A DNA stretch of 24,000 bases from an uncultured Alphaproteobacteria bacterium (lineage in GTDB: Bacteria; Pseudomonadota; Alphaproteobacteria; ATCC43930; CGMCC-115725). The translations under genes were made by a program, and so were the position numbers. Shown piece by piece: positions 17-16,309 of the stretch. The notes beneath the pieces were generated by a model. The model saw nothing but the letters and a program-made list of their open reading frames with translations, was not told the origin of the DNA and did not search any database. Position 1 is the first letter of the stretch; each line of letters begins with the position of its first letter. The DNA is taken from NCBI GenBank assembly GCA_963702925.1, contig OY969771.1, forward strand, positions 2,080,715 to 2,104,714, written 5' to 3'.

Positions 17-634
17 ATGGACTGGCCGACGTTGCACACTGCGCTGCGGGAGGTTGTCGCAGGAATGCGCACGGCCTCGACGGAGGCCCTGATTCGCATC
101 TGCCGCAAAGCCCACGAGGCCGGCGACCGCGCCAAGGTCAACCTAGCGTTCGAGGCCGCGAGCAAGACGGCTACGCCCTTGCTCCTTTCGCAGGCGTTCG
201 GTCAAGCCGAGGACGAGCGCAGGGAACAGGCGCAGGAAATCCTCTTGCAGCTCTTTACTGCGATCCGCGCCGGCAAGTCGCAGCTAGCAGAGAGATTCTT
301 CGCCGCCTTTGCGAAACGGCGCTCGATTGATCTTTTCCGCCGTCGCGAGGCGCGGCTCGAGGGCAAGTTGGATCGGATCGAACCGGCCGGAGAGGCCGAC
401 CCGATCGACGAGGTACCGGGCCGGGGTGCAAGTGTCGAAGCTCGCGCTCTGCTATCGGTCGCTGTCGAGAAGCTGCCACCAAAGCTCAGGATAGCCTTCA
501 TCCAGTATCATCGCTTCGGGATGACGCAGGAGGAGGTCGCCGAACAGAACAAAGTTGATGTCCGCACGGTCCATGAATGGCTCAAGGAAGCCCGCGCCGC
601 GCTCGGACTCAAAGGAGATGGAGATGACCGCTAA
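17..634 (+). CDS. Sigma-70 family (ECF-like) RNA polymerase sigma factor
   Basis: 205-aa ORF. It has a region-2-like segment (AEDERREQAQEILLQLF...FAKRRSIDLFRRREAR) and a region-4 HTH (LPPKLRIAFIQYHRFGMTQEEVAEQNKVDVRTVHEWLKEARAAL). Its stop at 632-634 overlaps the next ORF. The ATG at 17 is close to the window edge, so the true start could lie upstream. Confidence 0.7.
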   Translation: MDWPTLHTALREVVAGMRTASTEALIRICRKAHEAGDRAKVNLAFEAASKTATPLLLSQAFGQAEDERREQAQEILLQLFTAIRAGKSQLAERFFAAFAKRRSIDLFRRREARLEGKLDRIEPAGEADPIDEVPGRGASVEARALLSVAVEKLPPKLRIAFIQYHRFGMTQEEVAEQNKVDVRTVHEWLKEARAALGLKGDGDDR

Positions 635-1259
635 GCCGAACCGCACGCCCGATCTTGATGACGTCCTTGACGAGCTCGCCAAACTCCCTGCTCCGCCAGA
701 TGCGGGGACGCTGCGCGCCTGGACGAAAGAGTACCCTGGGTTCGCGCGCGAGATCGTTGCCTTCGCCACTGACTGGTTGGCGATGGATGCAGCACGCGTG
801 GAACGGTCCGCGACCGCCGAGGACATCGACCTCGTCGTCAACCGCACGATGAGCCGCGTGCAGACTATGCTTGACGCCGCGGAGCGCCCGGAGTCGATTA
901 TCGACCTCGCCGCCGACATCCGCGCGGCTGGACACGATTTCGATTCGTTCCAGCGCTTTCTCGGCATCGACAGGTCCATGCTGGACAGCCTGATTACGCG
1001 CCTGGCGAAGCCGGCGACCATACCGGCGTTGCTCGTCTGCTTGGCGGCCGAAGCGCTGAACCGGCCGCTCGATCGGCTGCGCGAATATTTCCGGCTCCCA
1101 GCGCAACTCGCCGGCGCCCACAAGTCTCGCGGGCGTCCGGTCCCGGCACAGGTTGACTTTACGGTGCTCGTTAGACATTCAAAACTGCCTGACCCCGACA
1201 AAGACCGGTGGCTGAAAGAACCGCCGGATCCGGACCTCCAGGGCAAACCGCATGGATAG
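624..1259 (+). CDS. Hypothetical protein, possible XRE-like HTH (candidate partner or substrate of the downstream ImmA-type peptidase domain, or an anti-sigma-like factor)
   Basis: The ORF track starts at 555, but AAGGAG (612-617) lies 6 nt before the ATG at 624, and ATG 618 is an alternative. The segment DIRAAGHDFDSFQRFLGIDRSMLDSLITRLAKPATIPALLVCLAAEALNRPLDRL resembles an XRE-type HTH pattern. The ORF overlaps both neighbours (sigma stop 632-634; helicase ATG 1252 versus its own stop 1257-1259). Confidence 0.55.
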   Translation: MTAKPNRTPDLDDVLDELAKLPAPPDAGTLRAWTKEYPGFAREIVAFATDWLAMDAARVERSATAEDIDLVVNRTMSRVQTMLDAAERPESIIDLAADIRAAGHDFDSFQRFLGIDRSMLDSLITRLAKPATIPALLVCLAAEALNRPLDRLREYFRLPAQLAGAHKSRGRPVPAQVDFTVLVRHSKLPDPDKDRWLKEPPDPDLQGKPHG

Positions 1260-4200
1260 CTTCGGCACCGTCCGTAGGCTCGCCCGCGAAAAGCATGAGG
1301 CGATGAAGGCTCGTGCGTCAGGCGACGGCACCGCAGCGGCACTCCTGGCTCAGGCGCGCACCACGACGAAAGCGGCGATCCACGGAGTGCCACCCGAACA
1401 TCCGCTGCTGGCCGGCGGCGACGGCGCGCTCCATAGGACCGGGCCGACGCCGTCGATCTACATCTCGGATGCGCTGGCTCCGGACCAGGCCGCCTACGTC
1501 GAGGCGCACGAATTCGGCCATCTCTGGATCGAGACACCGACCGAACCGGCGGTGGCGCCCTGCAACTCGGATCCATCGACGCCGGAAGAAAACACGCCAC
1601 TCGGACTACGTCGGGTAGAGGCCTACAGCCCGGAGGAACTGCGCGAGCGGTACGCCAACGTTTTCGGACGAGAGTTTCTTCTTCCGTGTTCGGAAGCAAA
1701 GCGACTATTCGGTTTGGGCAAATCGGCGAAGCAAATCGCAACCGACATCGGCGTCCCCATCGGCCTCGTCAACCAGCAGCTCGCGGCCGCGCTGCTGCTA
1801 CCCGAACCGTCCACCGAAGAGAAGGCTGTGGAGCGCGAGCGTCCAGGGCTCGACAAATCCCAGAAGATGGCCGCCGAACACGAAGGTTCGCCGCTGCTCG
1901 TCGAGGCGGGGCCTGGCACGGGCAAGACTCGCGCTCTAATCGCGCGGATCGAATATCTGCTTGCCAAGAACGTCCCGGCACCGAGCATTCTCGTCCTGAC
2001 TTTCTCGAACAAAGCTGCGAGGGAGATCAGAGAGCGCGTTGCGGGAAGCGTACCCGGAGCGGTGCCGGAAATCTGGGCGGGAACATTCCACGCCTTTGGC
2101 CTCGAACTCCTCCGCAAATACGGCCACCTCGACGGCATAGCCGAGCCCGTAAGGTTGCTCGATCAGGCCGACCAACTTGCACTGCTCGAACGCGAACTAC
2201 CGCGCCTCGGACTCGACCACTACTTGCGCCTTCACGAACCGCTTTTGGAACTCCGCAACATTATCGGCGCTATTTCGCGCGCGAAGGACGAAGTGTTCTC
2301 GCCGTCGGCATATGCGGACGCCGCCCGGCGCATGCTCTCGAAAGCTGGTTCCGATGAGGAACTCGTTCTGCGAGCCGAGAAAGCCGCGGAGGTCGGGCGG
2401 GTATATGCCCACTACGACGCTTGCCTTCGCGCCGAAGGCATCGTCGATTTTGCCGACCTCATCAACCAGCCCATCGAGATCCTGCGGAAGCATCCTGACA
2501 TCCGCGACGAATTGTGCGGCCAGTACACGCACATCCTGGTCGACGAATACCAGGACGTAAACCGCGCGAGCGCGCTGCTGCTCAAGGAGCTTGCCGGCGA
2601 GGGCGAGCACCTGTGGGTCGTCGGTGACGCACGGCAATCCATTTACCGGTTCAGAGGAGCCGCGCCTTCAAACACGACCGAGTTCGAGAAGGATTATCCA
2701 AAGGGCAAGCGTCTGCCGCTAGCCGTCAACTATCGGTCGAGAAAACAGATTGTCGATATGTTCGGAACCTACGCCGCCGGCATGAGCGTCGGCGGCGGCC
2801 GGAACCACTCACTTCGGGCGCACCACGGCGCAGGCACCAATCCGATCGACTTCAGCGTCGCGTCCGACCGTAACGCGGAGATCGCGGGAATCGCGGCCGT
2901 GATCCAGCGGCGGCGCTTGGCAGGCTGCGCCTACCGCGAACAGGCCGTACTTTGCCGCTCGCACTCCAATCTCCAGAAGATAGCGACAGGGCTCGAAGCT
3001 GTCGGCATACCCGTGCTGTACCTGGGCGACCTCTTCGAGCGGCCAGAAGTTCGAGACCTCCTTTCGCTCCTGTCGTTCGCATCCGAACGCCATCGCGGCG
3101 GCCTCATGAGGGTGGCAACGCTCCCGCGATGGCGCACACCGCTCGCCGACGTTCGGACGTTTCTTGCGCACGCCGCCGAGACTGAGAAGACGCCGCTCGC
3201 CGCCCTCGCGGCCGTGGAGAACCTCGACGACCTTTCGCTGACGGGGAGGAGTGCGCTCGCGCAGCTGCGCTCCGACCTCGATGGTGTCGGCTTCAAGACC
3301 GGGCCCGGGCAGTTCCTGTGCGACGTGCTGTTCGAGCGTGGTCTTGTCCGTGACTATCTCTCCGGCAACACAGCCGCTGACTGCCAGCGGCGGCTCGCCA
3401 TTCATCAGTTCCTTCAATTCGCTATTGAATACGACCGCGCGGGCGAAGGCGACCCAAAGCGCCGGCTGCTTGGCTGGGTCCGGCGGCTGGAGGTGTTCGG
3501 CGATGAGCGCGCACTGCGCGAACCACCGGCAGCTGTCGAAGGTATCGACGCGGTGCGGCTCATGACCGTTCACGCTAGTAAAGGTCTGGAGTTCGAGACC
3601 GTGCATCTGCCGACGCTTGGGAAAGGCATCTTCCCTCTGAAGCGGCACGGCGTGACCTGTCCTCCACCGGACGGAATGCTTCTTACGACGGCAGAGGATG
3701 ATCATAACGAGGAGGAAGAATGCCTCTTCTTCGTCGCGCTGTCGCGTGCTCGTGGCCACCTGTCGCTCTCGCGAGCGCAGCGCTATTCCGACAGCCAGCG
3801 CTCGAATCCTTCTCCCGCGCTTGAGGCGATCGCTGCACATCTCCCCCGGGCGCCGGACTCAGACCCTACATGGACGGCGCGGCTTCCCACGCCGACCGCA
3901 GGCGGGAGCCGCCTCGACCTCAAGCGCGCAGCGCGTGAGCACGACGGGCGGGACATTGAACTCTACATCGGTTGCCCACGCCGCTATCTCTATCAGGCGA
4001 TGCTAGGGCTGAGCGGCTCGCGCGAGGATAACGGCTACGTCCGGTTCCATGGCGTTCTCTACCGCGTGTTGGGTTGGATGGCCGAACAGACCGGCACCGT
4101 GACGACCGACGCGCTCAAAGCGGAAACGGACGCGCGCTGGGCCGAGACCGGTCCGACGGACCATCCGCTGCAGCCGCTATACCGCGCCTCCGCGCAGAAG

Positions 4201-4620
4201 ATCCTCGATCAGGCTAACGCGCGGCCGCGCAAGGGGATCCGGTTTGGAGAGACGCTGACCGCCACCATCGCCGGCCACACCATCAGCCTTTCGCTCGATG
4301 AGATCCAGAAGGACGGCCGTGGCTTCGTGATCCGTCGGCTCCGGACCGGGAAGGTGCCGAAGAAGCAGGACCACCGCGTCCTGCATGCGCTCATGGCGGA
4401 GGCCGGGAGGCAGGCGTTCGGAACAGGCGGCAAATTCGAAATCCGCTATCTCTCTTCCGACGACGCGGTGCCGATCTCCTTCGCCCGCGTCATGGCCGAC
4501 CGCCTCGAAGAGACCAAGGCCGTCATCGCAGGGCTCGCGGCCGGTGAATACCCGCCGATTCCGTCCGATAACTGCCCGCGCTGCCCGCACTACTTCATCT
4601 GCCAGGCCATTCCCGAGTGA
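1252..4620 (+). CDS. Three-domain fusion: N-terminal ImmA/IrrE (M78) metallopeptidase-like domain, UvrD/Rep-type SF1 helicase, and C-terminal Cas4/AddB-like PD-(D/E)xK nuclease with a Cys4 (Fe-S) cluster
   Basis: 1122 aa. Peptidase motifs: HEFGH (nt 1507-1521) followed by ERYANVFGREFLLP. Helicase motifs: GPGTGKT (1909-1929), TFHAFG, ILVDEYQDVN, VVGDARQSIYRFRGA, VNYRSRKQIV, TVHASKGLEFETVHLP, FFVALSRARGHL. Nuclease signatures: IGCPRRYLY (Cys codon 3973-3975), SLDEIQKD...IRRLRTGK, and CPRCPHYFIC (4573-4602). Confidence 0.9.
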   Translation: MDSFGTVRRLAREKHEAMKARASGDGTAAALLAQARTTTKAAIHGVPPEHPLLAGGDGALHRTGPTPSIYISDALAPDQAAYVEAHEFGHLWIETPTEPAVAPCNSDPSTPEENTPLGLRRVEAYSPEELRERYANVFGREFLLPCSEAKRLFGLGKSAKQIATDIGVPIGLVNQQLAAALLLPEPSTEEKAVERERPGLDKSQKMAAEHEGSPLLVEAGPGTGKTRALIARIEYLLAKNVPAPSILVLTFSNKAAREIRERVAGSVPGAVPEIWAGTFHAFGLELLRKYGHLDGIAEPVRLLDQADQLALLERELPRLGLDHYLRLHEPLLELRNIIGAISRAKDEVFSPSAYADAARRMLSKAGSDEELVLRAEKAAEVGRVYAHYDACLRAEGIVDFADLINQPIEILRKHPDIRDELCGQYTHILVDEYQDVNRASALLLKELAGEGEHLWVVGDARQSIYRFRGAAPSNTTEFEKDYPKGKRLPLAVNYRSRKQIVDMFGTYAAGMSVGGGRNHSLRAHHGAGTNPIDFSVASDRNAEIAGIAAVIQRRRLAGCAYREQAVLCRSHSNLQKIATGLEAVGIPVLYLGDLFERPEVRDLLSLLSFASERHRGGLMRVATLPRWRTPLADVRTFLAHAAETEKTPLAALAAVENLDDLSLTGRSALAQLRSDLDGVGFKTGPGQFLCDVLFERGLVRDYLSGNTAADCQRRLAIHQFLQFAIEYDRAGEGDPKRRLLGWVRRLEVFGDERALREPPAAVEGIDAVRLMTVHASKGLEFETVHLPTLGKGIFPLKRHGVTCPPPDGMLLTTAEDDHNEEEECLFFVALSRARGHLSLSRAQRYSDSQRSNPSPALEAIAAHLPRAPDSDPTWTARLPTPTAGGSRLDLKRAAREHDGRDIELYIGCPRRYLYQAMLGLSGSREDNGYVRFHGVLYRVLGWMAEQTGTVTTDALKAETDARWAETGPTDHPLQPLYRASAQKILDQANARPRKGIRFGETLTATIAGHTISLSLDEIQKDGRGFVIRRLRTGKVPKKQDHRVLHALMAEAGRQAFGTGGKFEIRYLSSDDAVPISFARVMADRLEETKAVIAGLAAGEYPPIPSDNCPRCPHYFICQAIPE

Positions 4621-4715
4621 CGCAGAAGCGACTTCCGCTTTTCCGGAGACGCCGCGACTAACCCTTCAGAGCAGCTGACCGATCGCCGGCCGGCACCCAA
4701 GAGAAGGGTTCTCAA

Positions 4716-5231
4716 ATGCGACCAATCGATGTCTTCGTCCAAGGCGGGGAAATCGCCGAAATTCTGGTCGGGCGCGCAGCCCCGATCCACTCGCTGGCCG
4801 AGGTGCTGGCCAATCTCGAACGTCCCGTTCCCCAGGGAGAAGGGATGCTGATCTTCGTCGAAGACATGCACGCGCCCGTCGATCCGGAGACGACCGTCGA
4901 GGAACTGCTGCCGCTGTGCGTCGACGAAGAGGCGATCATCGTGCCGCTGCGGCTCCACGTTTCGCGCTGCCGGCACGTCGAAGTGTCCGTCCGCTTCAAC
5001 GGCGAGCACGTAAAGCGTCGCTTCCCGCCTGGTGCCACCATCGGCCGTGTCCACCACTGGGCGGCGCGCCGCGCCTTCGGCCTGTCGCCCCGCGACGCGG
5101 CCGAGCACGTCCTGCAGATCCAGGGCACCCAGAAGCGCCCCGACCGTGACGTGCACATCGGGACGCTCACTTCCGGCACGACCTGTTCCATCGCGTTCGA
5201 CCTGGTGCCGCGCAAGCGGGTGGAGGGCTGA
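4716..5231 (+). CDS. Tandem beta-grasp ubiquitin-like protein (multiubiquitin / BilA-like) with a free C-terminal glycine
   Basis: 171 aa, with two halves of about 80 aa each, sized for beta-grasp domains. The protein ends ...LVPRKRVEG-stop (Gly codon 5226-5228). It is followed 2 nt later by the E2-like gene. Its position and size match the first gene of Ubl-E2-JAB-E1 operons. Confidence 0.7.
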
Positions 5232-5233
5232 AG

Positions 5234-5707
5234 ATGTCCACCGGCATCGGTCCAGACGAGGCGGTGTTCCGCAGCCATCTCGGCGGGGGCAGCTTCCTGC
5301 TCGGCACCACCGCCGGACGCTGGCGGCTGGTCTCGGTCGCCTGGCCGCACGCCGTGTTCGGCGTGCGTGCCGCGGACGGGATCGAGTACGGCCTCCGGTT
5401 TGAGTGCCGCGACTATCCGCACACGCCGGCCACGGCGCGGCCATGGGACATCGAACGCGACGCTCCCCTCGCGCCCGAACGCTGGCCGACCGGCAGGAGC
5501 CGCCTGCCGCTGGCGTTCAACCCGAGCTGGAAGAACGGTTCGTGCCTCTACCTGCCTTGCGACAGGCAGTCGATCGAGGGCCACGCGAACTGGCATCACG
5601 AACATCCGAGCCTGATCTGGGATCCCGCCCTCGGCATCGTCCATTACCTGCGGATCGTCCACGATCTCCTCAACTCAGGCGACTACGGGGGACGCCGTGC
5701 AGCATGA
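5234..5707 (+). CDS. Prokaryotic E2/UBC-like ubiquitin-conjugating enzyme homologue (BilB-like)
   Basis: 157 aa, tightly packed between the Ubl and JAB genes. Candidate catalytic cysteines lie in [18 protein letters not shown]. The assignment rests mainly on size and operon position plus this Cys-loop, so it is less certain than the JAB and E1 calls. Confidence 0.6.
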
Positions 5708-6179
5708 TCCGTTACTGCGCATCGCCCGGCCGCTGTGGCGCGAGATGACTACCGAGCTCCACCGCCGCACTGAAGGCCGCCACGAGTCCGGCGCGTTCCT
5801 GCTTGGGCACAAGGCGGCCGACGGGCGCACCGCGCGCGCGCTCGTCTATTACGACGATCTCGACCCGCTCGCCTACGACACGGGCATCTGCGTGTTGCAC
5901 GCGGACGCCTTCTCACGGTTGTGGGACATCTGCGGGGAACGCGATTTGTCTGTGGTCGCCGATGCCCACGTCCACGGCGGCCGCGCCGGCCAGAGCCCAT
6001 CGGACCGCGAAAATCCGATGATCGCGTGCCCCGGCCATCTCGCGCTCATCCTTCCTCTGATGGCTCGGCCTCCCGTGCGCCGGTGGGCAGTCGGCATCTA
6101 CGAATATCTCGGCGAGCACCGGTGGCGGCCGCACGGCGGCTGCTGTGGATCGCGCATTCTCAAGATAGAGGACGAATGA
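5697..6179 (+). CDS. JAB/JAMM (MPN+) metalloprotease, deconjugating enzyme (BilC-like)
   Basis: 160 aa. It has the upstream Glu in HESGAFLLG and a JAMM-like metal site, [13 protein letters not shown] (H-x-H-x6-S-x2-D). The GTG start at 5697 overlaps the E2 stop by 11 nt. The stop at 6177-6179 overlaps the E1 ATG at 6176. Confidence 0.85.
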
Positions 6180-7534
6180 TGAACGACTTGGAAGCGGTGT
6201 CGGATGCGCTCAACCGTCTCGTCAAGATCGCGCTCGACACGGGCGAGGCGTCGAGCGTCGAGGAGGCGGAGCAGATCTTCAGAAACTACCGGATGCAGAT
6301 CGTCGTCGGCGCCGACGTCATGCACAACGCCGTGCTGCAGGCGACGTTGCTGACGGCGGTCAACTGCGCTGCACGCAGCTTCCTGGGCGGCGTGACCGTC
6401 GTCGGAGCGTTGGGTGTTCTGCGCGTGATGCTGCCTCCGTTCCTCGACCTCGAAACCGCCGTCGCTGGCCTCGGTGCGCGGAGGACGGAGGTGCCGGATC
6501 CGGACCTGCCGATGCTGGTGATCGGCGATGTCGATGTCGCTCTATTGAAGCCGCTCGCAATCCGGGCGACGTTTTCTCAGTGGTGCGGCGGCATCGTTCC
6601 GGCCGCGAGCAACGTACGTCTAGCCGAGATTGGCGCGTTCACTCCAGCAGGCGTGCTCGCTGGCGCGCTGGGCGTTTGCGAGATATTCCAGCGCGTGCGC
6701 GGAGGTGCGCCGATGGCGTGCCGGAGGGCCGCCGGTCTGGACCTCTGGGATCCGCGGCGGGACTGGCTGCGCGGCGAAAGCGCGCCGCCTCCAGAGCGCC
6801 TTCCCGCCGCTGCGTGGCTCGTCGGGATGGGCAATCTCGGTCAGGCCTACCTCTGGACGCTCGCGCTTCTTCCCTACGGCGAAGAAGCCGCCAACCTTGT
6901 CTTGCAGGACACCGATATTCTCGCGCCATCCAACCTCAGCACGTCGTTGCTGACCACGCGTGAAAGGATGAAACGGCGCAAGACGCGGGAGATGGCTGCG
7001 TGGGCCGAAACGCGCGGCTTCAGGACGTCCATAGTGGAGCGGATTTTCGCAGCCGACTTCAGGGTCGGTGAACGCGAGCCTGCAGTGGCGCTCATTGGCG
7101 TCGACAACGCGCTCGCCCGGCAGTCGATTGAAGACGTAGGATTCGCGCGCATCATTGAGGCCGGTCTCGGCCGTGGACCGCAGGATTTTCTCGGCATCGA
7201 CCTGCACACGTTCCCCGCGTCGAAGACGGCGCGGGAAACTTGGCCGGAGACAGGCGCGTCGGACGCCGACATCGCGCAACCGGCCTACCGCGCGATACTC
7301 GAACGGACTGGGGATCGTTGCGGGACCGTGCGCCTTGCCGGCCGTTCCGTCGGCGCACCGTTCGTCGGCGCGGCAGCTGCGGCCCTCGCCATCGCTGAGT
7401 TGATGAGGCTCTGTCTCGGAGGAACGCGCTACGAAATGGTTTCGTGCCACCTGCGCGATCTGCAAGGACGCATCATCGTCCCCAATGGACAGGAGGCACC
7501 TTTCAACCCGGGCAGCATCCAAGTCGCCGCGTAG
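6176..7534 (+). CDS. E1-like ThiF/MoeB-family adenylyltransferase (BilD-like) with a long N-terminal, possibly degenerate Rossmann-like domain
   Basis: The ORF track gives 5921-7534, but the first 85 codons are R/P-rich and overlap the JAB gene, so the ATGATG at 6176 (coupled to the JAB stop) is the likely start. That gives 452 aa. Motifs: nucleotide-binding loop LVGMGNLGQ, LVLQDTD, IGVDNALARQ, and a candidate catalytic Cys in GDRCGT. Confidence 0.85.
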   Translation: MMNDLEAVSDALNRLVKIALDTGEASSVEEAEQIFRNYRMQIVVGADVMHNAVLQATLLTAVNCAARSFLGGVTVVGALGVLRVMLPPFLDLETAVAGLGARRTEVPDPDLPMLVIGDVDVALLKPLAIRATFSQWCGGIVPAASNVRLAEIGAFTPAGVLAGALGVCEIFQRVRGGAPMACRRAAGLDLWDPRRDWLRGESAPPPERLPAAAWLVGMGNLGQAYLWTLALLPYGEEAANLVLQDTDILAPSNLSTSLLTTRERMKRRKTREMAAWAETRGFRTSIVERIFAADFRVGEREPAVALIGVDNALARQSIEDVGFARIIEAGLGRGPQDFLGIDLHTFPASKTARETWPETGASDADIAQPAYRAILERTGDRCGTVRLAGRSVGAPFVGAAAAALAIAELMRLCLGGTRYEMVSCHLRDLQGRIIVPNGQEAPFNPGSIQVAA

Positions 7535-7600: not shown

Positions 7601-8914
7601 TCAGTCAGCTCGCATGCCCCCCCTAGGAAGCCATGCTTTGTGTCCGATTATTCGGCGTGGCGGCGGACTCCCCAGCAGCGCGAGGCCGTCCCGATAAAGA
7701 GCGTACGTGTATTCGGATGCCAGCAAAGTTAGCCCAGCGTCCTCACCGCCAATTGCGAAGCCGACAGGATCGGTCCGCGGAAGCTCGAGTGAATCTGGGA
7801 CGTTGTCTCTCCCGTTCCGGACGATCGCACTCAAAGCGTTGAGAAACCGCTCGGCGGCCTTCTCCTCCATCACGAACCATCCGGCGAATTCGTTTCCGTC
7901 CCGCCGCAGCCTGTGTGTTCCCCAGAGGCGAGGCCACCATCTCGGGTGCCAGAATTCGTCCAACCAGTCTGGCGAGTCGCTGAAGGGCCATCCCGATTCC
8001 ATGCAGGCCAGGAATATTCGGCCAGCATAGGGAATCTGTATGAAGCTCACCGGTGCCGTATCGTTTGGACGCTCTCCTCCGTCGCGAACCCAATCGATCC
8101 ATCGCGCGACGCTAGGCGCGTTCATCAAAGAAAAGTTAGACCGATGCGCGGAAAGCGCGAGCGATGTTGGCGTTGCCTCAGGACCTGGCATCGGATCCGC
8201 CTGTGTCGGAGGCCGGCGCTTGCCACGCGGTTTGGGAATCCGCGTCTCAGCGACGTGCAGGAAGGCACCCGCTGCTCCCGGTCTGGAGCCAAACGCTATC
8301 GAGTATCCGTGAACGACCTTGCCGTGAGGAGAGATCGCGGCGAGATGAGGCTTCACCTGCCGCAGATATTTGTGCTTCGCTTGGCGGCTGATGCCGGCGG
8401 ACGTGACATTTGCTGCAAATGACCCACGCGCTTCGGCCAGCACCACGCCGTGTCCCGATACGGCACCATCACCGTAAATGAAATCGGCGTGCGGCGCGAG
8501 CGAGCGTGATAGGCAGGACGCGTTGTCCCTCCAAGTGTAGCCCAGCGCGTTCACGGGCAAGTCAGTGACGCCGGTGCCAATGCGTCCAGCAAAGGACGTC
8601 CGCTCGGCATCGACGAGAGAATGGACATACCGTGTTAGCGCGAAGGTAGTGCCGTCGTCGACCAACCATTCCACTTCCGTCAGCGCGCTGTCGCCCCACC
8701 GCGTCAGCATTTCCGACGGCGCGTCTCGGAGCGTTGCCGTCCTTGCGATCGAGGCAGCGAGCGCGCCCGGTCCGAATATCAGTGTCGTACCTGCATTGGG
8801 TGGCTTGAAGCCCGCGGAGATGGGGCTTGGACTGTGTCGATGCTGCGTATGGCCGGTGACAGAGACCATCTTGTCACTGCGCCAGATCGCGGGAGCAGAC
8901 AGGACGGTGCTCAC
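7601..8914 (-). CDS. Hypothetical protein, 437 aa (possible PD-(D/E)xK-like core in the N-terminal half; Trp-rich C-terminal domain)
   Basis: GTG start at 8914 is preceded by AAGGAG with a 6-nt spacer. The amino-acid composition looks like a real protein. The segment FAGRIGTGVTDLPVNALGYTW...APHADFIYGDG...VVLAEARGSF...KHKYLRQVKP is reminiscent of restriction-endonuclease-fold cores (D...E-x-K with K replaced by R). The C-terminus contains DWLDEFWHPRWWPRLWG. I recognise no confident family. Confidence 0.7.
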   Translation of the reverse strand: MSTVLSAPAIWRSDKMVSVTGHTQHRHSPSPISAGFKPPNAGTTLIFGPGALAASIARTATLRDAPSEMLTRWGDSALTEVEWLVDDGTTFALTRYVHSLVDAERTSFAGRIGTGVTDLPVNALGYTWRDNASCLSRSLAPHADFIYGDGAVSGHGVVLAEARGSFAANVTSAGISRQAKHKYLRQVKPHLAAISPHGKVVHGYSIAFGSRPGAAGAFLHVAETRIPKPRGKRRPPTQADPMPGPEATPTSLALSAHRSNFSLMNAPSVARWIDWVRDGGERPNDTAPVSFIQIPYAGRIFLACMESGWPFSDSPDWLDEFWHPRWWPRLWGTHRLRRDGNEFAGWFVMEEKAAERFLNALSAIVRNGRDNVPDSLELPRTDPVGFAIGGEDAGLTLLASEYTYALYRDGLALLGSPPPRRIIGHKAWLPRGGMRAD

Positions 8915-8950
8915 GACACGCTCCTTATCGACCGGCTCCGGCTGTCCACT

Positions 8951-9487
8951 TTATGAGGCATCGCAAGACGGGAGGATCGACGCGAGATCGGGCTCGACGT
9001 CGAGACCATATTGATATGCCAGAGCCGCGATGTGCGTGCCAAACGTCGCCCGCAATTCGCCCAGGGCCACGAAGAAGGACGGGCTGCCCTCTTCGTCGTC
9101 TGAATGCCGCGGGCCGTGCCATCGCATGAGGTTGCGGAAATCTGGCGCCGGCTCTTCGAGGAATCTTCGACACGCGGCACGCATGGCGCGAACGGAACCC
9201 GCGGCCCGCGACGTTTCGGGCAAAGCCTGCAAGGCCTTTGTCAGCACCTCACGAATCTGGAGCACCGAGGAAGTGACCTGGGAGACGACCTCAAGGTGAT
9301 GGGGAACGAATAGAACGCGCCGATCTTCCAAGACCGTTAGAAGGCCTCTGACGATTTCGCGCTCGTCGGCGGGCGGTGTCCACTGAACGCCGAAGAACGG
9401 CAGCGAGAATCCGGTCAATCGGTTCACCGGCGATTTCGCCGCGATCTGTCCCTTCTTGGTGATATTTCGCGATCTGGCCACCTTCAC
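8951..9487 (-). CDS. Hypothetical protein, about 176-178 aa
   Basis: The ORF lies 36 nt upstream of the 437-aa gene on the same strand. GGGGAGG abuts the GTG at 9487 and lies 6 nt before the in-frame GTG at 9481, so 9481 is the more likely start. No recognisable motif. Confidence 0.65.
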   Translation of the reverse strand: MKVARSRNITKKGQIAAKSPVNRLTGFSLPFFGVQWTPPADEREIVRGLLTVLEDRRVLFVPHHLEVVSQVTSSVLQIREVLTKALQALPETSRAAGSVRAMRAACRRFLEEPAPDFRNLMRWHGPRHSDDEEGSPSFFVALGELRATFGTHIAALAYQYGLDVEPDLASILPSCDAS

Positions 9488-9546: not shown

Positions 9547-10461
9547 TCACCGGAGTAGCCGCATGAGCGCGTCTGATTGCTCGGCGAACTTTAGGGCGTT
9601 GGTCTTCCGAAGCCGTTCCAGGTTTTGCAGCTTCCAGCGCAGGCCGGGGAGCTGCTCCAGATGCGGCACGCCCAGCAGCGGCCATTCGGGCTTTGCGGCG
9701 ACTAGCGACAGCAGAAACCGGCGTTCGTCAGCGCCCAGACCTTGCTGGAGCTCGCGCATCATCCGGTCGCGCGCCGCCAGGAGCGCATCGAGCTCGACGG
9801 GCTCGGCGGTCATGCCTGTGAAATTGTGCTCGAACTCCTGGCGGATGTCGCGCAGTGATGGAAACAGGACCTCGTGGACCGGCCGGTTATGACTCGCGAG
9901 GTAGACGACGAACGCGCGGCGAATGCCGATGGTGATTCCCTCATGCGCGAAGAGCTGCAGGACATCGAACAGATCGCGGGGATGTTGGCGGTCCATCGCT
10001 GCCACCAGCTTGCCGCCATACACGTCCTCGAGCGACACGACTGGGATCTCGATATCCGCCTGCAGCGTCTCGCGCGCAGTCTGTGTCAGCGACGCCCTGC
10101 GCACCGGAAGGACGGTGCCGCGCATGACGAAGTTGACCTCGATCTTGACCTCGATGTTGCCCCGCCGCACCAGCAGCTTGGTCTCGCCGGCCGCCGCGGC
10201 GGCCGGCGCATGGGTCTGGAAGCCTTGCTTCTGCAGGCGTGCCGCGGACTGGCGAATGGCCTCGTTGATGCGCTGGAGCGCCTGCTCGCGCGGCAGCGTG
10301 TGGTCGGGAAACACCAGGTCGAGGTCGACCGAGAGCCGCGGCATGTCGCGCACGAAGAGATTGATCGCCGTGCCGCCCTTGAGCGCGAACGTGTCGTCGA
10401 CGAGCACGAGCGGCGCGACGCGCGTCAGCAGCCGTGCGCTGTCTAGATAGACCTGGTTCAT
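9547..10461 (-). CDS. abiEii: AbiEii/AbiGii-family nucleotidyltransferase toxin (type IV toxin-antitoxin / abortive infection)
   Basis: 304 aa. It carries the nucleotidyltransferase-fold signature ALKGGTAINLF...LSVDLDLVF and the overall DUF1814-like pattern (VSLEDVYGGKLVAAMDRQHPRDLFDV). An ATGA start/stop overlap with the upstream antitoxin gene lies at 10458-10461. Confidence 0.9.
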   Translation of the reverse strand: MNQVYLDSARLLTRVAPLVLVDDTFALKGGTAINLFVRDMPRLSVDLDLVFPDHTLPREQALQRINEAIRQSAARLQKQGFQTHAPAAAAAGETKLLVRRGNIEVKIEVNFVMRGTVLPVRRASLTQTARETLQADIEIPVVSLEDVYGGKLVAAMDRQHPRDLFDVLQLFAHEGITIGIRRAFVVYLASHNRPVHEVLFPSLRDIRQEFEHNFTGMTAEPVELDALLAARDRMMRELQQGLGADERRFLLSLVAAKPEWPLLGVPHLEQLPGLRWKLQNLERLRKTNALKFAEQSDALMRLLR

Positions 10462-11195
10462 GGCTTCAGCACCAGGAGCCCGTCACCGGAACGGGACACC
10501 CACGGCCGGTCGCTGCCTTTAGGCAACTGAGACGGATCGAGCTTGCCAGCCCAGGGCTGGGAGAGTTCGCGGCCGAGCTGCAGGCATAGGCGCACGGTCT
10601 TGATGCTGGTGCAGCGCTTGAGCAGGTCGCGCAGCACGTCGGCGCGCAGACTATAGGTGCTCTCGACCAGCTCGCGCGCTTCCTGCAGCGGCTGCCGGAC
10701 GCCGACTTCGCTCAACACCTCCAGCAATGCGCGTTCCGGCGCCGAGACGAGCGGACCGCCCTTGCGGTTCTCGAAGGGCCGGACGTGAAGCAGCGCGTCC
10801 GGCTCCTCCTTGAAGAGCCGCTTGCGATGGTACTCGGCCGGGAAGCGCTGGGTGAACCACTCCGGAAGGTGCCCGGCCTTCCAGCCGTAAAGATCTAGGA
10901 CAGCCCGTTGCGACAGGTACTGGCGTATGCCATGCCAGTCGAGCGCGGACTTGCCGCCAACGTGCAATCCGTCGAAGCTCCGCTGCAGCAGAGCGAGGCT
11001 CGGGTGCATGGCGGGCGGATCGTTCGGCCGGCAATAGACGCCGCGCGACAGCCGTTGCAGCCAGCCGGCACGGACATAGTGGACGGCGAGGTCGGCCGAT
11101 ATCCCCAGGGCGGCGAGGTCCTCGGAGGTCAGCGGCGTCCCCGGCGCCAGGCGGGTATAAAGCCGATTTAGCTTGTTTCTGTGAGTCGTAGGCAT
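10458..11195 (-). CDS. abiEi: AbiEi-family antitoxin / transcriptional autoregulator (N-terminal wHTH)
   Basis: The ORF track begins at 11252, but I prefer Met-20 (ATG at 11195). The N-terminus MPTTHRNKLNRLYTRLAPGTPLTSEDLAALGISADLAVHYVRAGWLQRLSRGVYCRP matches the AbiEi wHTH pattern. The stretch 11196-11252 is AT-richer and promoter-like. Confidence 0.85.
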   Translation of the reverse strand: MPTTHRNKLNRLYTRLAPGTPLTSEDLAALGISADLAVHYVRAGWLQRLSRGVYCRPNDPPAMHPSLALLQRSFDGLHVGGKSALDWHGIRQYLSQRAVLDLYGWKAGHLPEWFTQRFPAEYHRKRLFKEEPDALLHVRPFENRKGGPLVSAPERALLEVLSEVGVRQPLQEARELVESTYSLRADVLRDLLKRCTSIKTVRLCLQLGRELSQPWAGKLDPSQLPKGSDRPWVSRSGDGLLVLKP

Positions 11196-11204
11196 ACTAC
11201 GACT
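11184..11204. promoter_or_regulatory. Inverted repeat IR1, AGTCGTAG-gcata-CTACGACT, centred on the abiEi start codon; candidate AbiEi operator
   Basis: Perfect 8-bp arms read directly from the sequence. It shares the TCGTAG/CTACGA half-site with IR2. Confidence 0.5.
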
Positions 11205-11231
11205 ATAACAACAATTCGAAGGCGTGGCCAA
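11202..11231 (-). promoter_or_regulatory. Putative sigma-70-type promoter for abiEi-abiEii (-35 TTGGCC, 18-nt spacer, -10 TATAGT) predicting a leaderless or near-leaderless mRNA
   Basis: The minus strand reads TTGGCC-N18-TATAGT-CGTAGT-ATG. There is no Shine-Dalgarno before the ATG at 11195. This is pattern-based only. Confidence 0.3.
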
Positions 11232-11250
11232 GTTTGGGTTCGGCACCACC

Positions 11251-11269
11251 ATCGTAGCTCAGCTACGAT
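11251..11269. promoter_or_regulatory. Inverted repeat IR2, ATCGTAGC-tca-GCTACGAT; second candidate AbiEi operator
   Basis: Perfect 8-bp arms, with the same TCGTAG core as IR1, whose nearest arm lies 46 bp away. AbiEi proteins are known to autorepress through paired inverted repeats in their promoter. Confidence 0.45.
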
Positions 11270-11499: not shown

Positions 11500-12765
11500 T
11501 CACGCACCATTGCCGCCGCGGCGCCTCTGCGAACGTGCGAGCTGTATCGCGAGATGACCAACCGCTAGCTTCACGTAGCGCTGGACCATCTTTGGACTTT
11601 TCCATCCCCCGAGCACCATGAGCGAAGGGGCATCGACACCGTCCATGACCGCCCAGCTCGCCCAATGATGGCGCCAATCGTGAATTCTAAACCAGTTGAT
11701 TTTCGCAACGAGTTCCGGGCGGCAGGTCTTATGGCAGCTTGCGCAGGAGAGCGCGTAGTCGCTCAGCTCCTCCCGTTCGCCGGCGGGACGAACAACCGCG
11801 AGCTCGACGCACGCGTTCGCCGGGCCTCCTGGTGCCGCGCTGAGCTTGGCGCCGCAATGCAGACAGGTTTTTTGGTCCTTCAGAAGCTTCTTGATCGTGA
11901 ACCGCCGTAGCGCCGTGGCGTGCGCCTTCCGAATACCCGAACCGTCGCGCCCCTCACCATGCGAGGCGCTGCGGCGATCGACATAAGGCGTTCCATCTGG
12001 CTTGACGAACACCGGCCCGCTGGTTTGAAGATTATGCATCTTCTCCAACGTCGCGCGGACTTCCGGGTGCATCGGCGCGACCCGCATGTCGCCGTTCTTC
12101 GTCTTGCGGAAGGTCACTGTGTCGCGACTTAAGCTGACGTCCGGCCATTGCAGACGAAGCGCTTCGGATTCGCGGCACCCTTGAAGGCAAAGCGTCAGCG
12201 CAATGGGCTTCGCGTGGTCGGCATATTCCGCCAGAAGCCCGTCTCGGTCCTCGGACTCCAGGAAGATCTCCCGAACGGCTCCGTCGGACGGCAACACGAA
12301 CTTCGGCAAGGTGAGCTTGAACTTCTCCGCCGTGCGCACGAGCGGCGGCGAAAACATCGCGTACCAGCGCCGCACCGTGGCCGGCGCCGGATCGTCGAGC
12401 TTCTCGGCGACGAACTTATCCCAGTCTTCGGGCTCGAAGGAGTCGACCGGCTTCTCTTCGAAGAACTTTCCGAGACGCAGCAGCTTCTGGCGGTCCTGGT
12501 TCCCGAGTGGCGTACTTCCTTTTGCCTTTGCGTCCACGTAGTCGGCGGCGGCCGTCGCGAAGCCGGGGATGGCCTTTGATTTGGCGGGCTTTTCGCCGCG
12601 GAGCAGCTGCTCGCTGATCTCGGCGCAGCGGCGGGTATAAATTACCTGCGCGCTTGTCTTGTCGCGGCAGCCCGTAGTCTCTCTAATCCGGACGCTCGTT
12701 TTCCCAACGCGGATCGTGCCAACGATCCAGAAGACGGCACCCCGTTTGGTGAGCTTGGAGGACAT
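11500..12765 (-). CDS. Tyrosine recombinase / phage-type integrase with a CxxC...CxxC insertion in the catalytic domain
   Basis: 421 aa. It has an arm-binding-like N-terminus (KRGAVFWIVGTIRVGKTSVRIRETTG). Catalytic elements: LQGCRESEALRLQWPDV (Arg), HDWRHHWAS (HxxR), GGWKSPKMVQRYVKL (Tyr). An extra segment, CLHCGAKLS...CASCHKTC, lies between the K-hairpin and HxxR. Confidence 0.9.
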   Translation of the reverse strand: MSSKLTKRGAVFWIVGTIRVGKTSVRIRETTGCRDKTSAQVIYTRRCAEISEQLLRGEKPAKSKAIPGFATAAADYVDAKAKGSTPLGNQDRQKLLRLGKFFEEKPVDSFEPEDWDKFVAEKLDDPAPATVRRWYAMFSPPLVRTAEKFKLTLPKFVLPSDGAVREIFLESEDRDGLLAEYADHAKPIALTLCLQGCRESEALRLQWPDVSLSRDTVTFRKTKNGDMRVAPMHPEVRATLEKMHNLQTSGPVFVKPDGTPYVDRRSASHGEGRDGSGIRKAHATALRRFTIKKLLKDQKTCLHCGAKLSAAPGGPANACVELAVVRPAGEREELSDYALSCASCHKTCRPELVAKINWFRIHDWRHHWASWAVMDGVDAPSLMVLGGWKSPKMVQRYVKLAVGHLAIQLARSQRRRGGNGA

Positions 12766-14761: not shown

Positions 14762-16309
14762 TTAGCTCGGAGGCGCACGGCCTCCCTGGCCGGCCGCCGG
14801 AGCCTGCGAAGGCGGCCGCGCTTTCCCGCTTGTAGGGCGCTGCCGAGACGCTTGGTCGGCCGCGCGCGGCAGGCGCTGCAAGTTGAGGGCGAGCCCCAAA
14901 GGCTCGATCGCCTCGTCGATAAGGCTGACGAGGCGCTCCACCGCTTTCTCTTGGCGGGTGCGCTCCGCCGCGCTTGCGCCGAGATGAAGCCATCGCACGA
15001 TATCCGCGAGGGCATGGAGCGCGGCATGGGCGGCGCGCGGCGCGTTGACGGTGATGCGATCAAGCCCGAGGGCCGCCTGGCGATCGCGATGCGCCGCGGC
15101 GCGCTCCGCCGCGGTCATCGCGCGCGCCGCATGCTTGCGCGGGCGTCCGATTTTCCGGCCGTGCACCGACAGGCGGACCGCCGGCTCCGACCCGTTCGCA
15201 ACCAGGATCGGCTCGATCAGCCGTCGCGCGAGAAACCGCACGACAGGGACCGCGACCGCATCCGCCGCAAGGGCGTATGCATGCGAATAGGCGGGCGGCA
15301 GACGATAATCGTCCGGAACGCCCATGAGCCGCGCCGCCTCGCGTGCCGAGAGGAGCCGCGAGCGCAGGTCTTTGCCCTCGATGCGGAGTATTTTCTGTCG
15401 GCTCGCGCCGCCCGTCGGCATCCGTAAGCAGCCGGCGAGATCGTCGGTGCGAAGCTCCACCACGGACGCTCCTGCGTCTCGAGGTCCACGCGTGCGTTCA
15501 TAGAGACAACCGATCGCGAGTTTGTTGCGCCGCTGCGCGCGGCGGAGCTTTTCTCGATCGCGCGCCGACAGCCTCTCGATCAGCTCCCGCGTTCTTTCCG
15601 GCGTATCCCATGCCGCGTCTGCAACGCCGGTTTCGATCAGATCGACCAACTCGACGGTGCGTCGCGCCGGCCGCGGCAGCCGCCACCAGATCCAGCGGCG
15701 CGCCGTCTCGGGATCGAGCAAATCGTGGAACTCGCAGACCTGCCGCGGATGCCAGAGCGGCGACGGCTTGTCGCCGATCAGCCACGGCGGCAGCGACAGG
15801 TCTTCGCGCGCGGCGACGAGGAAGGCCCGCGGACGCGACTGCGGCACGAACCAGGCGGCATCGGCGATCACGACCCCGTAAACATAGCCAGCGCCGCTCA
15901 AGGCGCGCAAAATCTCCGCGAGATCCTCGCCGCCATTCGAGGTCACGAGGGCGGACACGTTCTCGATCGCGATGATCGCCGGATGACGGATGCCGCGCCG
16001 CAGCTCCTGAAGCAGTCGGCAAAACTCCCATACCACCGCGCCGCGCATGCCGGAAATGCCCGCCCGTCTGCCGGCCGGAGAAAAGTCCTGGCATGGAAGG
16101 GACGCCCAGCCGAGATCGGCGCGTTCTGGGAGATGATGCGCGTCGAGGGTCGCGATATCGCTTTCGCAAAAAGCCGCGCGCCCAAAATTGGCGCGGTAGG
16201 CATCGGCCTTCACGCAGTCGAAATCGTTTGCGAACAAGCAACGCCACTCCTCGCCGAGCCCTAGGCGCACAGCACCCATGCCGGCGAAAAATTCATAAAA
16301 GGTTTTCAT
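14762..16309 (-). CDS. dcm: DNA (cytosine-5)-methyltransferase with a C-terminal extension of about 150 aa
   Basis: The start is taken at MKTFYEFFAGMG (ATG at 16309, GGAG about 9 nt upstream). Motifs: I FAGMGA, IV SLPCQDFS, VI IENV, VIII QSRPRAFL, X AADAVAVPVV. The C-terminal tail contains GRPRKHAARAMTAAERAAAHRDR (AT-hook-like GRPRK). Confidence 0.9.
   Translation of the reverse strand: MKTFYEFFAGMGAVRLGLGEEWRCLFANDFDCVKADAYRANFGRAAFCESDIATLDAHHLPERADLGWASLPCQDFSPAGRRAGISGMRGAVVWEFCRLLQELRRGIRHPAIIAIENVSALVTSNGGEDLAEILRALSGAGYVYGVVIADAAWFVPQSRPRAFLVAAREDLSLPPWLIGDKPSPLWHPRQVCEFHDLLDPETARRWIWWRLPRPARRTVELVDLIETGVADAAWDTPERTRELIERLSARDREKLRRAQRRNKLAIGCLYERTRGPRDAGASVVELRTDDLAGCLRMPTGGASRQKILRIEGKDLRSRLLSAREAARLMGVPDDYRLPPAYSHAYALAADAVAVPVVRFLARRLIEPILVANGSEPAVRLSVHGRKIGRPRKHAARAMTAAERAAAHRDRQAALGLDRITVNAPRAAHAALHALADIVRWLHLGASAAERTRQEKAVERLVSLIDEAIEPLGLALNLQRLPRAADQASRQRPTSGKARPPSQAPAAGQGGRAPPS

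Follow-up and report, generated by a model that had tools for sequence, protein, structure and literature searches.

The window analysed here is a stretch of 24,000 nucleotides from an uncultured Alphaproteobacteria bacterium (GenBank assembly GCA_963702925.1, contig OY969771.1, positions 2,080,715 to 2,104,714 of the forward strand), and the system in question is a cassette of three overlapping genes at its left end together with the operon that follows it. The first gene (1–634, partial) encodes a sigma factor; the second (624–1259), referred to as open reading frame 2 (ORF2), encodes a 211-aa candidate anti-sigma factor and protease substrate; and the third (1252–4620) encodes a 1122-aa fusion protein composed of an M78 peptidase, a helix-turn-helix (HTH)-like linker, a superfamily 1 (SF1) UvrD-type helicase, and a degenerate iron–sulfur (Fe-S) nuclease-like domain. 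A complete BilABCD operon, detected with PADLOC, lies directly downstream on the same strand (4716–7534), starting 96 bp after the cassette. An original prediction, made from the sequence alone and ending at 4620, short of this operon, had proposed the three genes as a self-contained module with a proteolytically triggered helicase–nuclease as its effector; in the reading favoured below, they are probably a sensor/regulator cassette that switches on the downstream BilABCD operon, not a stand-alone weapon.

Gene Organization and the Sigma Factor

All features described up to position 7534 lie on the plus strand. The sigma reading frame was called at 17–634, with the stop codon TAA at 632–634, and overlaps by 11 nt the ORF2 gene, which begins with ATG at 624; ORF2 ends with TAG at 1257–1259 and in turn overlaps by 8 nt the fusion gene, which begins with ATG at 1252. 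The three frames (17–634, 624–1259, and 1252–4620) had been given correctly, starts and stops included, in the original prediction, as had the positions of HEFGH (1507–1521), Walker A (1909–1929), and the cysteine codons (3973 and 4573–4602). The closest relative found, locus L081 (loci from the scans described below carry L numbers), contains the same seven genes, flanked by conjugation genes, a RelB/ParE pair, and a resolvase, and its fusion protein is 84% identical to that of the window. The reading frame stays open through bases 2–16 of the window (AQLAA), which correspond to an internal stretch of the L081 sigma factor (262 aa). The sigma gene is cut by the window edge, so its 205-aa product is partial; about 55 codons of its N-terminal part, together with the promoter of the cassette, lie off the window.

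The window sigma protein matches Pfam Sigma70_r4_2 at 1.7e-9 (37.6 bits, cut-off 25.7) and the NCBIfam model TIGR02937 (sigma70-ECF) at 47.9 bits (cut-off 42.9), the latter covering residues 60–196. The profile of the sigma family matches the extracytoplasmic function (ECF) sigma factor SigE in the PDB at 2.8e-5, with an alignment across the sigma-2 and sigma-4 regions, and also matches the structures of SigL, RpoE, and SigH. Pfam Sigma70_r2 gave no match in the window sigma protein; the SigE alignment nonetheless spans the sigma-2 region. On these profile matches, the first gene encodes a divergent ECF-type sigma factor.

Domain Architecture of the Fusion Protein

More than 120 full-length homologues share the architecture of the fusion protein. 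Its AlphaFold2 (AF2) model has a predicted local distance difference test score (pLDDT) of 83.7 and a predicted TM-score of 0.82, and Foldseek matched this model to UvrD/PcrA, AddA, AdnA/B, and RecB. Pfam searches matched each of the domains that had originally been named, M78, UvrD, and a nuclease-type fold, within the one 1122-aa protein. For the N- and C-terminal parts, a single-sequence search of the PDB with phmmer returned no matches, and profiles were needed.

The N-terminal part (1252–1797) is a CapP/IrrE-type zinc metallopeptidase (residues 1–145; HEFGH) followed by an HTH-like linker (residues 146–182). The protein matches Peptidase_M78 (PF06114) at 5.6e-7 (29.8 bits, cut-off 22); HEFGH corresponds to H86, E87, and H90, which together with E132 and E141 are invariant or nearly so in the family, and all 27 of the complete N-termini contain HExxH. 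The profile of this domain matches CapP (PDB: 7t5t) at 6.7e-6, aligned through HELGH and E..QA..FA..LLxP, and IrrE (PDB: 3dte) at 5e-3. The M78 assignment of the original prediction is therefore upheld, with a score above the Pfam cut-off and the catalytic residues intact. The three-domain layout of CapP and IrrE is only partly kept; the peptidase and the HTH-like linker are present, and the GAF domain is replaced by the helicase and the nuclease-like domain.

The SF1 UvrD/PcrA-type helicase core (1849–3831) matches UvrD-helicase (PF00580) at 7e-68 and UvrD_C (PF13361) at 5e-30. Its motif set (Walker A, DExx, III, IV, V, and VI) is complete, with all motifs invariant among 25 sequences; the core has the 1A/1B/2A/2B fold, and Foldseek aligned it with UvrD at 6e-36 and 28–31% identity. 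PADLOC matches to GajB and RTasHel were generic UvrD matches over the helicase only, and membership of these systems was not accepted. In addition, three metagenomic loci (L153, L161, and L163) encode M78–helicase relatives whose match to the fusion protein stops at about residue 950–980 and which have no ORF2 or sigma hidden Markov model (HMM) match upstream; they may belong to a related family that lacks both the Fe-S domain and the partner genes of the cassette.

The C-terminal domain (3934–4617) has an AdnA/AddB/Cas4-like nuclease fold. It matches PDDEXK_1 (PF12705) at 1.6e-8, and its profile matches the nuclease domain of Mycobacterium smegmatis AdnA at 1.5e-4, the best sequence match in the PDB. 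Four cysteines, C908 (3973–3975) and C1108, C1111, and C1117 (4573–4602), are invariant across 24 diverse sequences. In the profile alignment, the family sequence 'vvvRrvRtGr' lies over 'VVVDLKTGK' of AdnA, so that R1029-L-R1031 (RxR, 4336–4344) occupy the places of AdnA D934 and K936, and the catalytic (D/E)xK is lost; PDB entry 6ppj is the AdnA D934A mutant, nuclease-dead at this same motif-III aspartate. No acidic residue was found at the motif-III position in any of the 24 diverse family members. Of the Cas4/AddB-type nuclease originally proposed, the fold stands by homology and by the cysteine cluster, and the catalytic (D/E)xK motif is missing; the helicase–nuclease effector built on it loses its footing, and the large protein reads as a sensor and not as a nuclease effector. 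The Fe-S cluster of AddB-type nucleases is needed to bind broken DNA ends, and a role in binding DNA ends or single-stranded DNA (ssDNA) would suit this domain here. For annotators, the combination of helicase and nuclease domains is insufficient for calling an effector, and the catalytic residues need checking.

Conservation of the Cassette and Its Downstream Operons

A genome scan, with one genome per species, yielded 33 loci with full-length fusion homologues of 35–48% identity, distributed over Alpha-, Beta-, and Gammaproteobacteria, Acidobacteria, Chloroflexi, Verrucomicrobia, and Latescibacterota. Neighbour-gene HMMs were applied to the 31 loci having upstream DNA. It was found that a gene of the ORF2 family lies immediately upstream of the fusion gene in all 31, and that a sigma-like gene lies upstream of ORF2 in all 31 as well (29 by the family HMM, and L020 and L029 by Pfam Sigma70_r4_2), with the ORF2 gene in immediate succession to the sigma gene each time. 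By contrast with these, 47 control loci around ordinary UvrD/PcrA helicases (768 kb) gave zero matches to the sigma family, the ORF2 family, Bil, or Bub. The recurrence of this tight three-gene order is far beyond chance. The homologues keep the sigma and ORF2 genes and occur sporadically across phyla, on mobile elements and plasmids.

Among the 31 genome loci, BilABCD follows the cassette in 11; a type I Bub-like operon (Multi_ubiq/Prok-E2_E, JAB-ThiF, and DUF6527) in 8; a type II Bub-like operon (Multi_ubiq, DUF6791-ThiF, and DUF6527) in 9; another E1/JAB operon in one (L031); and BREX-like genes (BrxL, 4e-112) in one (L020), while one locus (L029) is unassigned. A metagenome scan seeded with the N-terminal peptidase profile found BilABCD in 27 of 28 loci with informative downstream DNA, a sample biased to the clade of the window. 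Over both scans, a ubiquitin-like conjugation operon stands downstream of the cassette in 56 of 59 informative loci (Bil 38, Bub-like 17, and other E1/JAB 1); another defence operon follows in 57 of 59, and the cassette was never seen alone. The idea of a self-contained module has to be given up on this evidence, since the cassette sits directly upstream of a ubiquitin-like conjugation operon in nearly every informative locus and next to BREX-like genes in one.

Two of these loci have further features of their own. Locus L020 (uncultured bacterium MFD01476, 7696–18621) encodes a sigma factor, a zf-HC2–ORF2 hybrid, and a fusion protein of 1276 aa; downstream of these lie a DNA-methylase-like gene and BrxL. 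In a Sphingomonas Bub-like operon (L017:15846–17354), a 502-aa protein with matches to TCAD9 and to an aminoglycoside-phosphotransferase-like kinase is encoded between the JAB-E1 and DUF6527 genes.

ORF2, the Candidate Anti-Sigma Factor

ORF2 belongs to a family with 1336 cluster representatives (50% identity clusters, E ≤ 1e-3, among 1.84 billion), and the window protein has no match in Pfam, NCBIfam, or PADLOC; among the viral contigs searched, no close relatives were found. Its AF2 model (mean pLDDT 78) consists of an N-terminal helical domain, a five-helix domain, a disordered stretch, and a short C-terminal element. The N-terminal helical domain (residues 1–90, 624–893), in which helices are confidently predicted over residues 11–58, is putatively sigma-binding and is more conserved among the diverse family members than any other part of ORF2.

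The five-helix domain (residues 95–157, 906–1094, pLDDT about 90) bears on the original labelling of the second protein as XRE-like. The Foldseek list for it is led by XRE/Cro proteins (434 Cro, SinR, C.AhdI, the N-terminal domain of CapH, and DdrO), with a target-normalised TM-score of 0.71 and a root-mean-square deviation of 2.5 against the CapH N-terminal domain (PDB: 7t5u); no match in this search was significant by E-value, the top XRE matches having E ≥ 0.66. Neither HTH_3 nor HTH_31 gave an HMM match in the window ORF2. A homologue from Roseiflexus, L029_u1, passes Pfam HTH_31 (32.8, cut-off 27) at the position equivalent to this domain, and another, P0307, has a weak HTH_26 match. The XRE-dominated Foldseek list and the HTH_31 match of L029_u1 make the label reasonable as a statement about the predicted fold; at the level of HMM matches to the window protein it finds no backing.

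A conserved linear motif, AHKSRGRPVPAQVDF (residues 163–181, 1110–1166), lies in the predicted disordered stretch. Residues 164–172 have a pLDDT below 50, yet A165, P172, Q176, and F179 are invariant, and diverse members of the ORF2 family share the conserved pattern (Y/F/H)K(A/S)xxKP...SF. By analogy with CapP, which cuts CapH near its C-terminus, AHKSRGRPVPAQVDF is proposed as a candidate recognition or cleavage site of the protease.

Two domain architectures point to an anti-sigma function for ORF2. In L020, the gene between the sigma and fusion genes encodes a zf-HC2 (HxxxCxxC) anti-sigma domain joined to the C-terminal half of ORF2, so that the zf-HC2 domain takes the place of the ORF2 N-terminal domain. 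In the reverse arrangement, the 402-aa protein P0370 (L083, metagenome contig SRR16630534_9903, 1090–3067) consists of the ORF2 N-terminal domain, a transmembrane segment, and FecR/FecR_C, and here the ORF2-type domain fills the N-terminal cytoplasmic slot of a FecR-type protein; the gene overlaps a preceding 259-aa sigma gene by 11 nt and is followed by a DDE transposase. P0370 is either a natural FecR-type anti-sigma factor carrying an ORF2 N-domain or a product of rearrangement.

The Promoter-Like Motif and the Predicted Leader Hairpin

The window and L081 have a nearly invariant 95-bp spacer separating the fusion gene from bilA, which holds the sequence CTTCCG(C/G)-N-GCGACTAA. In the window, this is a bipartite promoter-like motif, CTTCCGC-15 nt-GCGACTAA (4632–4661, exact pattern match 4633–4659), the presumed sigma target driving bilABCD; L081 has the same bipartite sequence ahead of its sigma gene, at a distance of 60–90 nt. 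Two blocks at a fixed spacing, repeated upstream of the sigma gene itself, are what is expected of an ECF-type sigma factor that is autoregulated. A simple scan for sigma-70 promoters and terminators gave nothing informative around 4620–4716.

In the family at large, the main form of the motif is CTT(T/A)CCGG-N15-(C/G)CGATT(A/G), located 2–21 nt past the fusion stop in 22 of 28 loci. A loose regular expression for the promoter gave 136 genome-wide hits against about 52 expected and is informative only by positional concentration; since it was too degenerate, a position weight matrix (PWM) was built. The 22 loci score 15.7–24.1 with this matrix, compared with a mean of 2.0, a standard deviation of 3.7, and a 99th percentile of 12.2 for random 83-nt windows. 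The PWM mis-registers the variant clade to which the window belongs, and the window motif was read by pairwise comparison with L081. Strong copies also stand upstream of the sigma gene in L001, L003, L004, L006, L021, and L028, as do copies of the variant clade in L002, L011, L023, L027, and L081, making about 11 loci all told, or about a third. From these positions, we infer that the sigma factor of the window cassette uses the bipartite motif. That a dedicated sigma factor provides a transcriptional output, as originally proposed, is supported.

A plasmid of Cupriavidus sp. EM10 (NZ_CP076062.1; L087, 8225–13940) separates the motif from the fusion gene. It encodes a sigma-like protein (256 aa), an ORF2-like protein (211 aa), and BilABCD, with no fusion gene, and the promoters of the sigma gene and of bilA both keep the motif despite this absence; the motif is therefore tied to the connection between the sigma factor and Bil, and is not a feature of the fusion gene's 3' end. 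In the place of the fusion gene, this plasmid has an opposite-strand gene for a 295-aa protein without a Pfam match.

A further copy of the motif occurs inside the sigma coding region, about 215 bp upstream of the sigma stop (e.g., L019:8980–9020), with the TTACCGG form in L009, L010, L012, L014–L016, L019, L022, L024, L032, and L033, and the TTTCCG form in L005, L007, and L030. In loci with the former, the sequence is TTACCGG-N16-CGATTGA, coding for YRLRLDAAIDALP where region 4 begins, and the −35 variant of the internal copy (TTACCGG or TTTCCGG) agrees with that of the downstream promoter at the same locus. It was searched for in the window sigma gene and is absent there and from the clade of the window. 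This internal copy may act as a promoter from which ORF2 and the fusion gene are transcribed, or coding conservation may account for it.

Downstream of the motif, a leader hairpin is predicted at 4660–4710, the outer stem of which pairs an anti-Shine–Dalgarno (anti-SD) sequence, AACCCUUC, with the likely Shine–Dalgarno sequence of bilA, GAAGGGUU; it has a minimum free energy of −18.5 kcal/mol, and its z-score of −1.6 is weak taken alone. Analogous hairpins are present in L019 (13205–13245), L017 (13430–13475), L014, and L003, where the z-scores lie between −2.3 and −5.7. The 5' arm of the window hairpin begins right at the −10-like element. One speculative possibility is that transcripts initiated by the sigma factor would lack the anti-SD arm, while read-through transcripts from the cassette would retain it and stay untranslated. 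Rfam and tRNA searches across the window returned no matches.

The BilABCD Operon and the Surroundings of the Cassette

The downstream operon has the gene order bilA-bilB-bilC-bilD of Bil, a bacterial ISG15-like defence system. The gene bilA (4716–5231) encodes a ubiquitin-like protein (PADLOC BilA, 9.7e-54); bilB (5234–5707) an E2-like protein (PADLOC BilB, 2.3e-60; Pfam DUF7665, 3.8e-62); bilC (5697–6179) a JAB/MPN deubiquitinase-like protein (PADLOC BilC, 5.1e-61); and bilD (6185–7534) an E1-like protein (PADLOC BilD, 3.8e-163), with a weak ThiF match. Directly past bilD, on the minus strand (7601–9487), lie genes for a 437-aa protein without a match in any library and a DUF6650 protein (1.7e-10).

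Further downstream, a type IV toxin–antitoxin pair, composed of an AbiEii nucleotidyltransferase toxin (4e-44) and an AbiEi antitoxin (5e-39), is encoded on the minus strand (9547–11252), followed by a tyrosine integrase on the same strand (11500–12765). A C-5 cytosine DNA methylase (Dcm, minus strand, 5.7e-46) stands beside a Vsr endonuclease (plus strand, 2.9e-29) at 14762–17005, a stretch with the highest GC content of the window (0.69–0.71). On the plus strand, an HTH_17 excisionase-like gene (17552–18289) precedes two overlapping genes for proteins of about 735 aa with C-terminal Phage_integrase domains (18497–22854). The integrase, excisionase-like, and recombinase-like genes suggest an integrative mobile element. 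The AbiE pair, the integrase, and Dcm/Vsr place the cassette among defence and mobile-element genes, and the view that its three genes work as a single unit in such surroundings is supported.

Proposed Mechanism and Alternative Explanations

The loss of the catalytic motif, the linked operons, and the promoter motif make the unit read as a sensor/regulator, with BilABCD as the effector. The domain identities, the motif loss, the invariant gene set, the linkage to ubiquitin-like operons, and the duplication of the promoter motif are computational observations, and around them the following chain of events can be proposed. The helicase/Fe-S module would engage ssDNA or free DNA ends arising from phage infection or DNA damage, and this engagement would activate the fused CapP-like protease; the activated protease would cleave the candidate anti-sigma factor ORF2; and the sigma factor, once released, would direct RNA polymerase to the bipartite promoter at 4632–4661, leading to transcription of bilABCD. 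In relatives, the sigma factor would also act on the identical promoter upstream of its own gene, giving positive feedback. A more specific form of this mechanism, offered tentatively, is a motor-coupled switch, in which an ATP-driven SF1 translocase, with an Fe-S 'ex-nuclease' serving as a DNA-end clamp, would actively search for or load onto ssDNA or free DNA ends of invading phage and, by this mechanical engagement, would cause the protease to destroy the anti-sigma factor irreversibly, and in which the private sigma factor and promoter would make Bil and Bub operons portable across phyla.

Several points weigh against the sensor/regulator reading. The binding of sigma to ORF2, the cleavage of ORF2, the activating signal, and the transcription start are steps that we infer. 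The known anti-sigma signatures searched for (zf-HC2/ZAS, RskA, and FecR-N) are found in neither the window ORF2 nor 29 close homologues; P0370 comes from a single 4.3-kb metagenome contig, beside a transposase, and could result from rearrangement; and the XRE-type fold of ORF2 may be real, in which case ORF2 could act as a DNA-binding repressor instead of, or besides, binding sigma. L015 has no motif, and the −10-like element of the window's clade differs from the main form (GCGACTAA versus CGATTA/G), its assignment resting on the match with the sigma promoter of L081 and on four sister loci. PD-(D/E)XK enzymes sometimes relocate their catalytic residues, which leaves room for some residual nuclease activity. 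Finally, the linkage to ubiquitin-like operons is nearly exclusive, and the fusion protein could itself take part in the ubiquitin-like mechanism.

The alternative that survives best, although it is unlikely, takes ORF2 to be a CapH-like repressor that is bound to DNA and removed by the protease, with the sigma factor merely a constitutive, portable specificity factor. CapH, DdrO, and ImmR are all XRE repressors cleaved by M78 proteases, and this fits the XRE-like domain of ORF2 with its HTH_31-positive homologue, the missing anti-sigma signature in the window protein, and the CCGG-centred partial palindromes in the promoter. However, the HTH-like domain is central to C-terminal in ORF2, whereas it is N-terminal in CapH and DdrO, and the part that is best conserved is the non-HTH N-terminal domain; moreover, halves of ORF2 are found fused to the canonical anti-sigma modules zf-HC2 and FecR, and the overlapping order of sigma followed by ORF2 is the classic arrangement of a sigma/anti-sigma pair.

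It is improbable that the fusion protein is instead a working part of the ubiquitin-like pathway, engaged in target recruitment, with phage DNA, or in the processing of ubiquitin-like proteins or their conjugates, with regulation secondary. Such a role would account for the near-exclusive linkage to ubiquitin-like operons of three architectures and for the intact helicase motifs. No protective phenotype has yet been obtained, or reported, for Bub operons in Escherichia coli, so that the constructs tested may miss something. Nevertheless, BilABCD from Collimonas under an arabinose promoter protects E. coli by itself, and the effector thus does not need the cassette, in line with a regulatory role of the latter; a sigma-type promoter stands between cassette and operon; L020 pairs the cassette with BREX-like genes; on the Cupriavidus plasmid the fusion is missing, yet sigma, ORF2, the promoters, and Bil are all retained; and the protease is of the CapP/IrrE type and not of the deubiquitinase type.

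Autonomous defence by a proteolytically triggered helicase–nuclease effector, with the sigma factor as its own output, as the original prediction had it, is now very improbable: the architecture does resemble helicase–nuclease effectors, the PADLOC models of GajB and RTasHel match the helicase core, and the locus lies amid defence and mobile-element genes, but (D/E)xK is absent from every family member examined, those PADLOC matches are generic to UvrD and confined to the helicase, and the cassette always has company, nearly always another defence operon. A housekeeping DNA-repair helicase of the AddAB/AdnAB kind under ECF sigma control, suggested by the structural likeness to UvrD, AddA, AdnA, and RecB, is hardly conceivable given the sporadic distribution across phyla on mobile elements and plasmids, the degenerate nuclease motif, the protease domain, and the constant linkage to Bil and Bub.

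If the sensor/regulator reading holds, Bil and Bub, which are bacterial ubiquitin-like conjugation systems, are offered a concrete and testable on-switch, with E87 (protease), K225 (ATPase), the four cysteines (Fe-S), and the promoter motif as its critical residues and sites, in a cassette that is widespread in Proteobacteria, Acidobacteria, Chloroflexi, Verrucomicrobia, and others. The private sigma factor and promoter would constitute an orthogonal expression module, which may explain how the operons function after horizontal transfer. Were the motor-coupled form true, it would be the first helicase-gated protease/sigma pathway in immunity and would explain the silence of ubiquitin-like defence operons before infection.

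Comparison with Known Regulatory Systems

The nearest counterpart is CapH/CapP. It has been reported that ssDNA activates CapP, a protein composed of a peptidase, an HTH-like domain, and a GAF domain, and that CapP cuts its substrate, the XRE repressor CapH, close to the C-terminal end (Lau et al. 2022; bioRxiv 10.1101/2022.04.27.489752). The cassette shares with this system an M78 (IrrE-like) zinc metallopeptidase with an HTH-like linker, an XRE-fold partner, and a position upstream of defence operons, which for CapH/CapP include Bil (15%) and Bub (31%); the protease activity of CapP is DNA (ssDNA)-dependent, and it is the CapP structure 7t5t that the N-terminal profile of the fusion matches. 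However, the place of the GAF domain of CapP is taken in the fusion by about 940 residues of SF1 helicase and Fe-S nuclease-like domain; the HTH is N-terminal in CapH, a small repressor, whereas the HTH-like domain of ORF2 is central and preceded by an additional conserved domain at the N-terminus; and CapH/CapP comprises two genes, usually divergent and without a sigma factor, while the window cassette comprises three co-directional genes with a sigma factor and a sigma-type promoter.

Similarly, in Deinococcus (IrrE(PprI)/DdrO) and in ICEBs1 (ImmA/ImmR), DNA damage leads to cleavage of an XRE regulator by an M78 protease, and PprI senses ssDNA (PMC10904395). These systems work by derepression, through removal of a DNA-bound repressor, and have neither a sigma factor nor a helicase; they control repair genes or the excision of an element, whereas the cassette adjoins a ubiquitin-like defence operon.

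The regulatory logic proposed for the cassette has a parallel in CalpL/CalpT/CalpS, in which, reportedly (Rouillon et al. 2023), an infection signal leads a protease to cleave an anti-sigma factor and an ECF sigma factor is freed. This type III CRISPR system, summarised in PMC12751052, follows the same protease/anti-sigma/sigma logic; CalpL is a SAVED-Lon enzyme activated by cyclic tetraadenylate (cA4), unlike the M78 protease fused to a helicase in the cassette, and the sequences are unrelated. Moreover, the CalpS regulon is unknown, whereas the proposed target operon of the cassette is adjacent. In Myxococcus, the ECF sigma/anti-sigma pair DdvS/DdvA controls a CBASS-CRISPR island (PMC11506125); it is likewise a dedicated pair governing defence operons, but DdvA is a transmembrane anti-sigma factor, there is no M78 protease–helicase, and the defence cargo is different.

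With AdnAB, AddAB, and RecBCD, the fusion protein has in common a UvrD-like SF1 motor and, C-terminal to it, a nuclease fold of the RecB family that carries a four-cysteine Fe-S cluster; in contrast to these, it is a single polypeptide with an N-terminal protease, the aspartate and lysine of motif III are replaced by arginine, and its context is one of regulation and defence rather than repair.

The regulators CapW/BrxR and CapK/CapS are modular, DNA-damage-responsive, and located upstream of Bil, Bub, CBASS, and BREX operons (EMBO J 2026, PMC13373217). CapW/BrxR is a WYL repressor and CapK/CapS consists of a kinase that phosphorylates a STAS-wHTH repressor, so both proteins and mechanisms are unrelated to those of the cassette. 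In the literature searched, including work on Bil, Bub, CapH/CapP, and CapK/CapS and the comparative genomics of Iyer 2006, no sigma/helicase–protease cassette turned up, in keeping with the original impression that no system of this composition had been described; the Bub Table S1 gives only CapP/CapH gene IDs, in which fusions are indistinguishable. Since its logic resembles that of CapH/CapP and CalpL/CalpT/CalpS, the cassette is not categorically new. Three such regulator families, CapW, CapH/CapP, and CapK/CapS, are counted in PMC13373217, and the sigma/helicase–protease cassette is not among them; if the reading proposed here is true, it would be a fourth family of DNA-responsive defence regulators beside these three, and the first regulator to unite an M78 protease, sigma/anti-sigma logic, and a helicase sensor.

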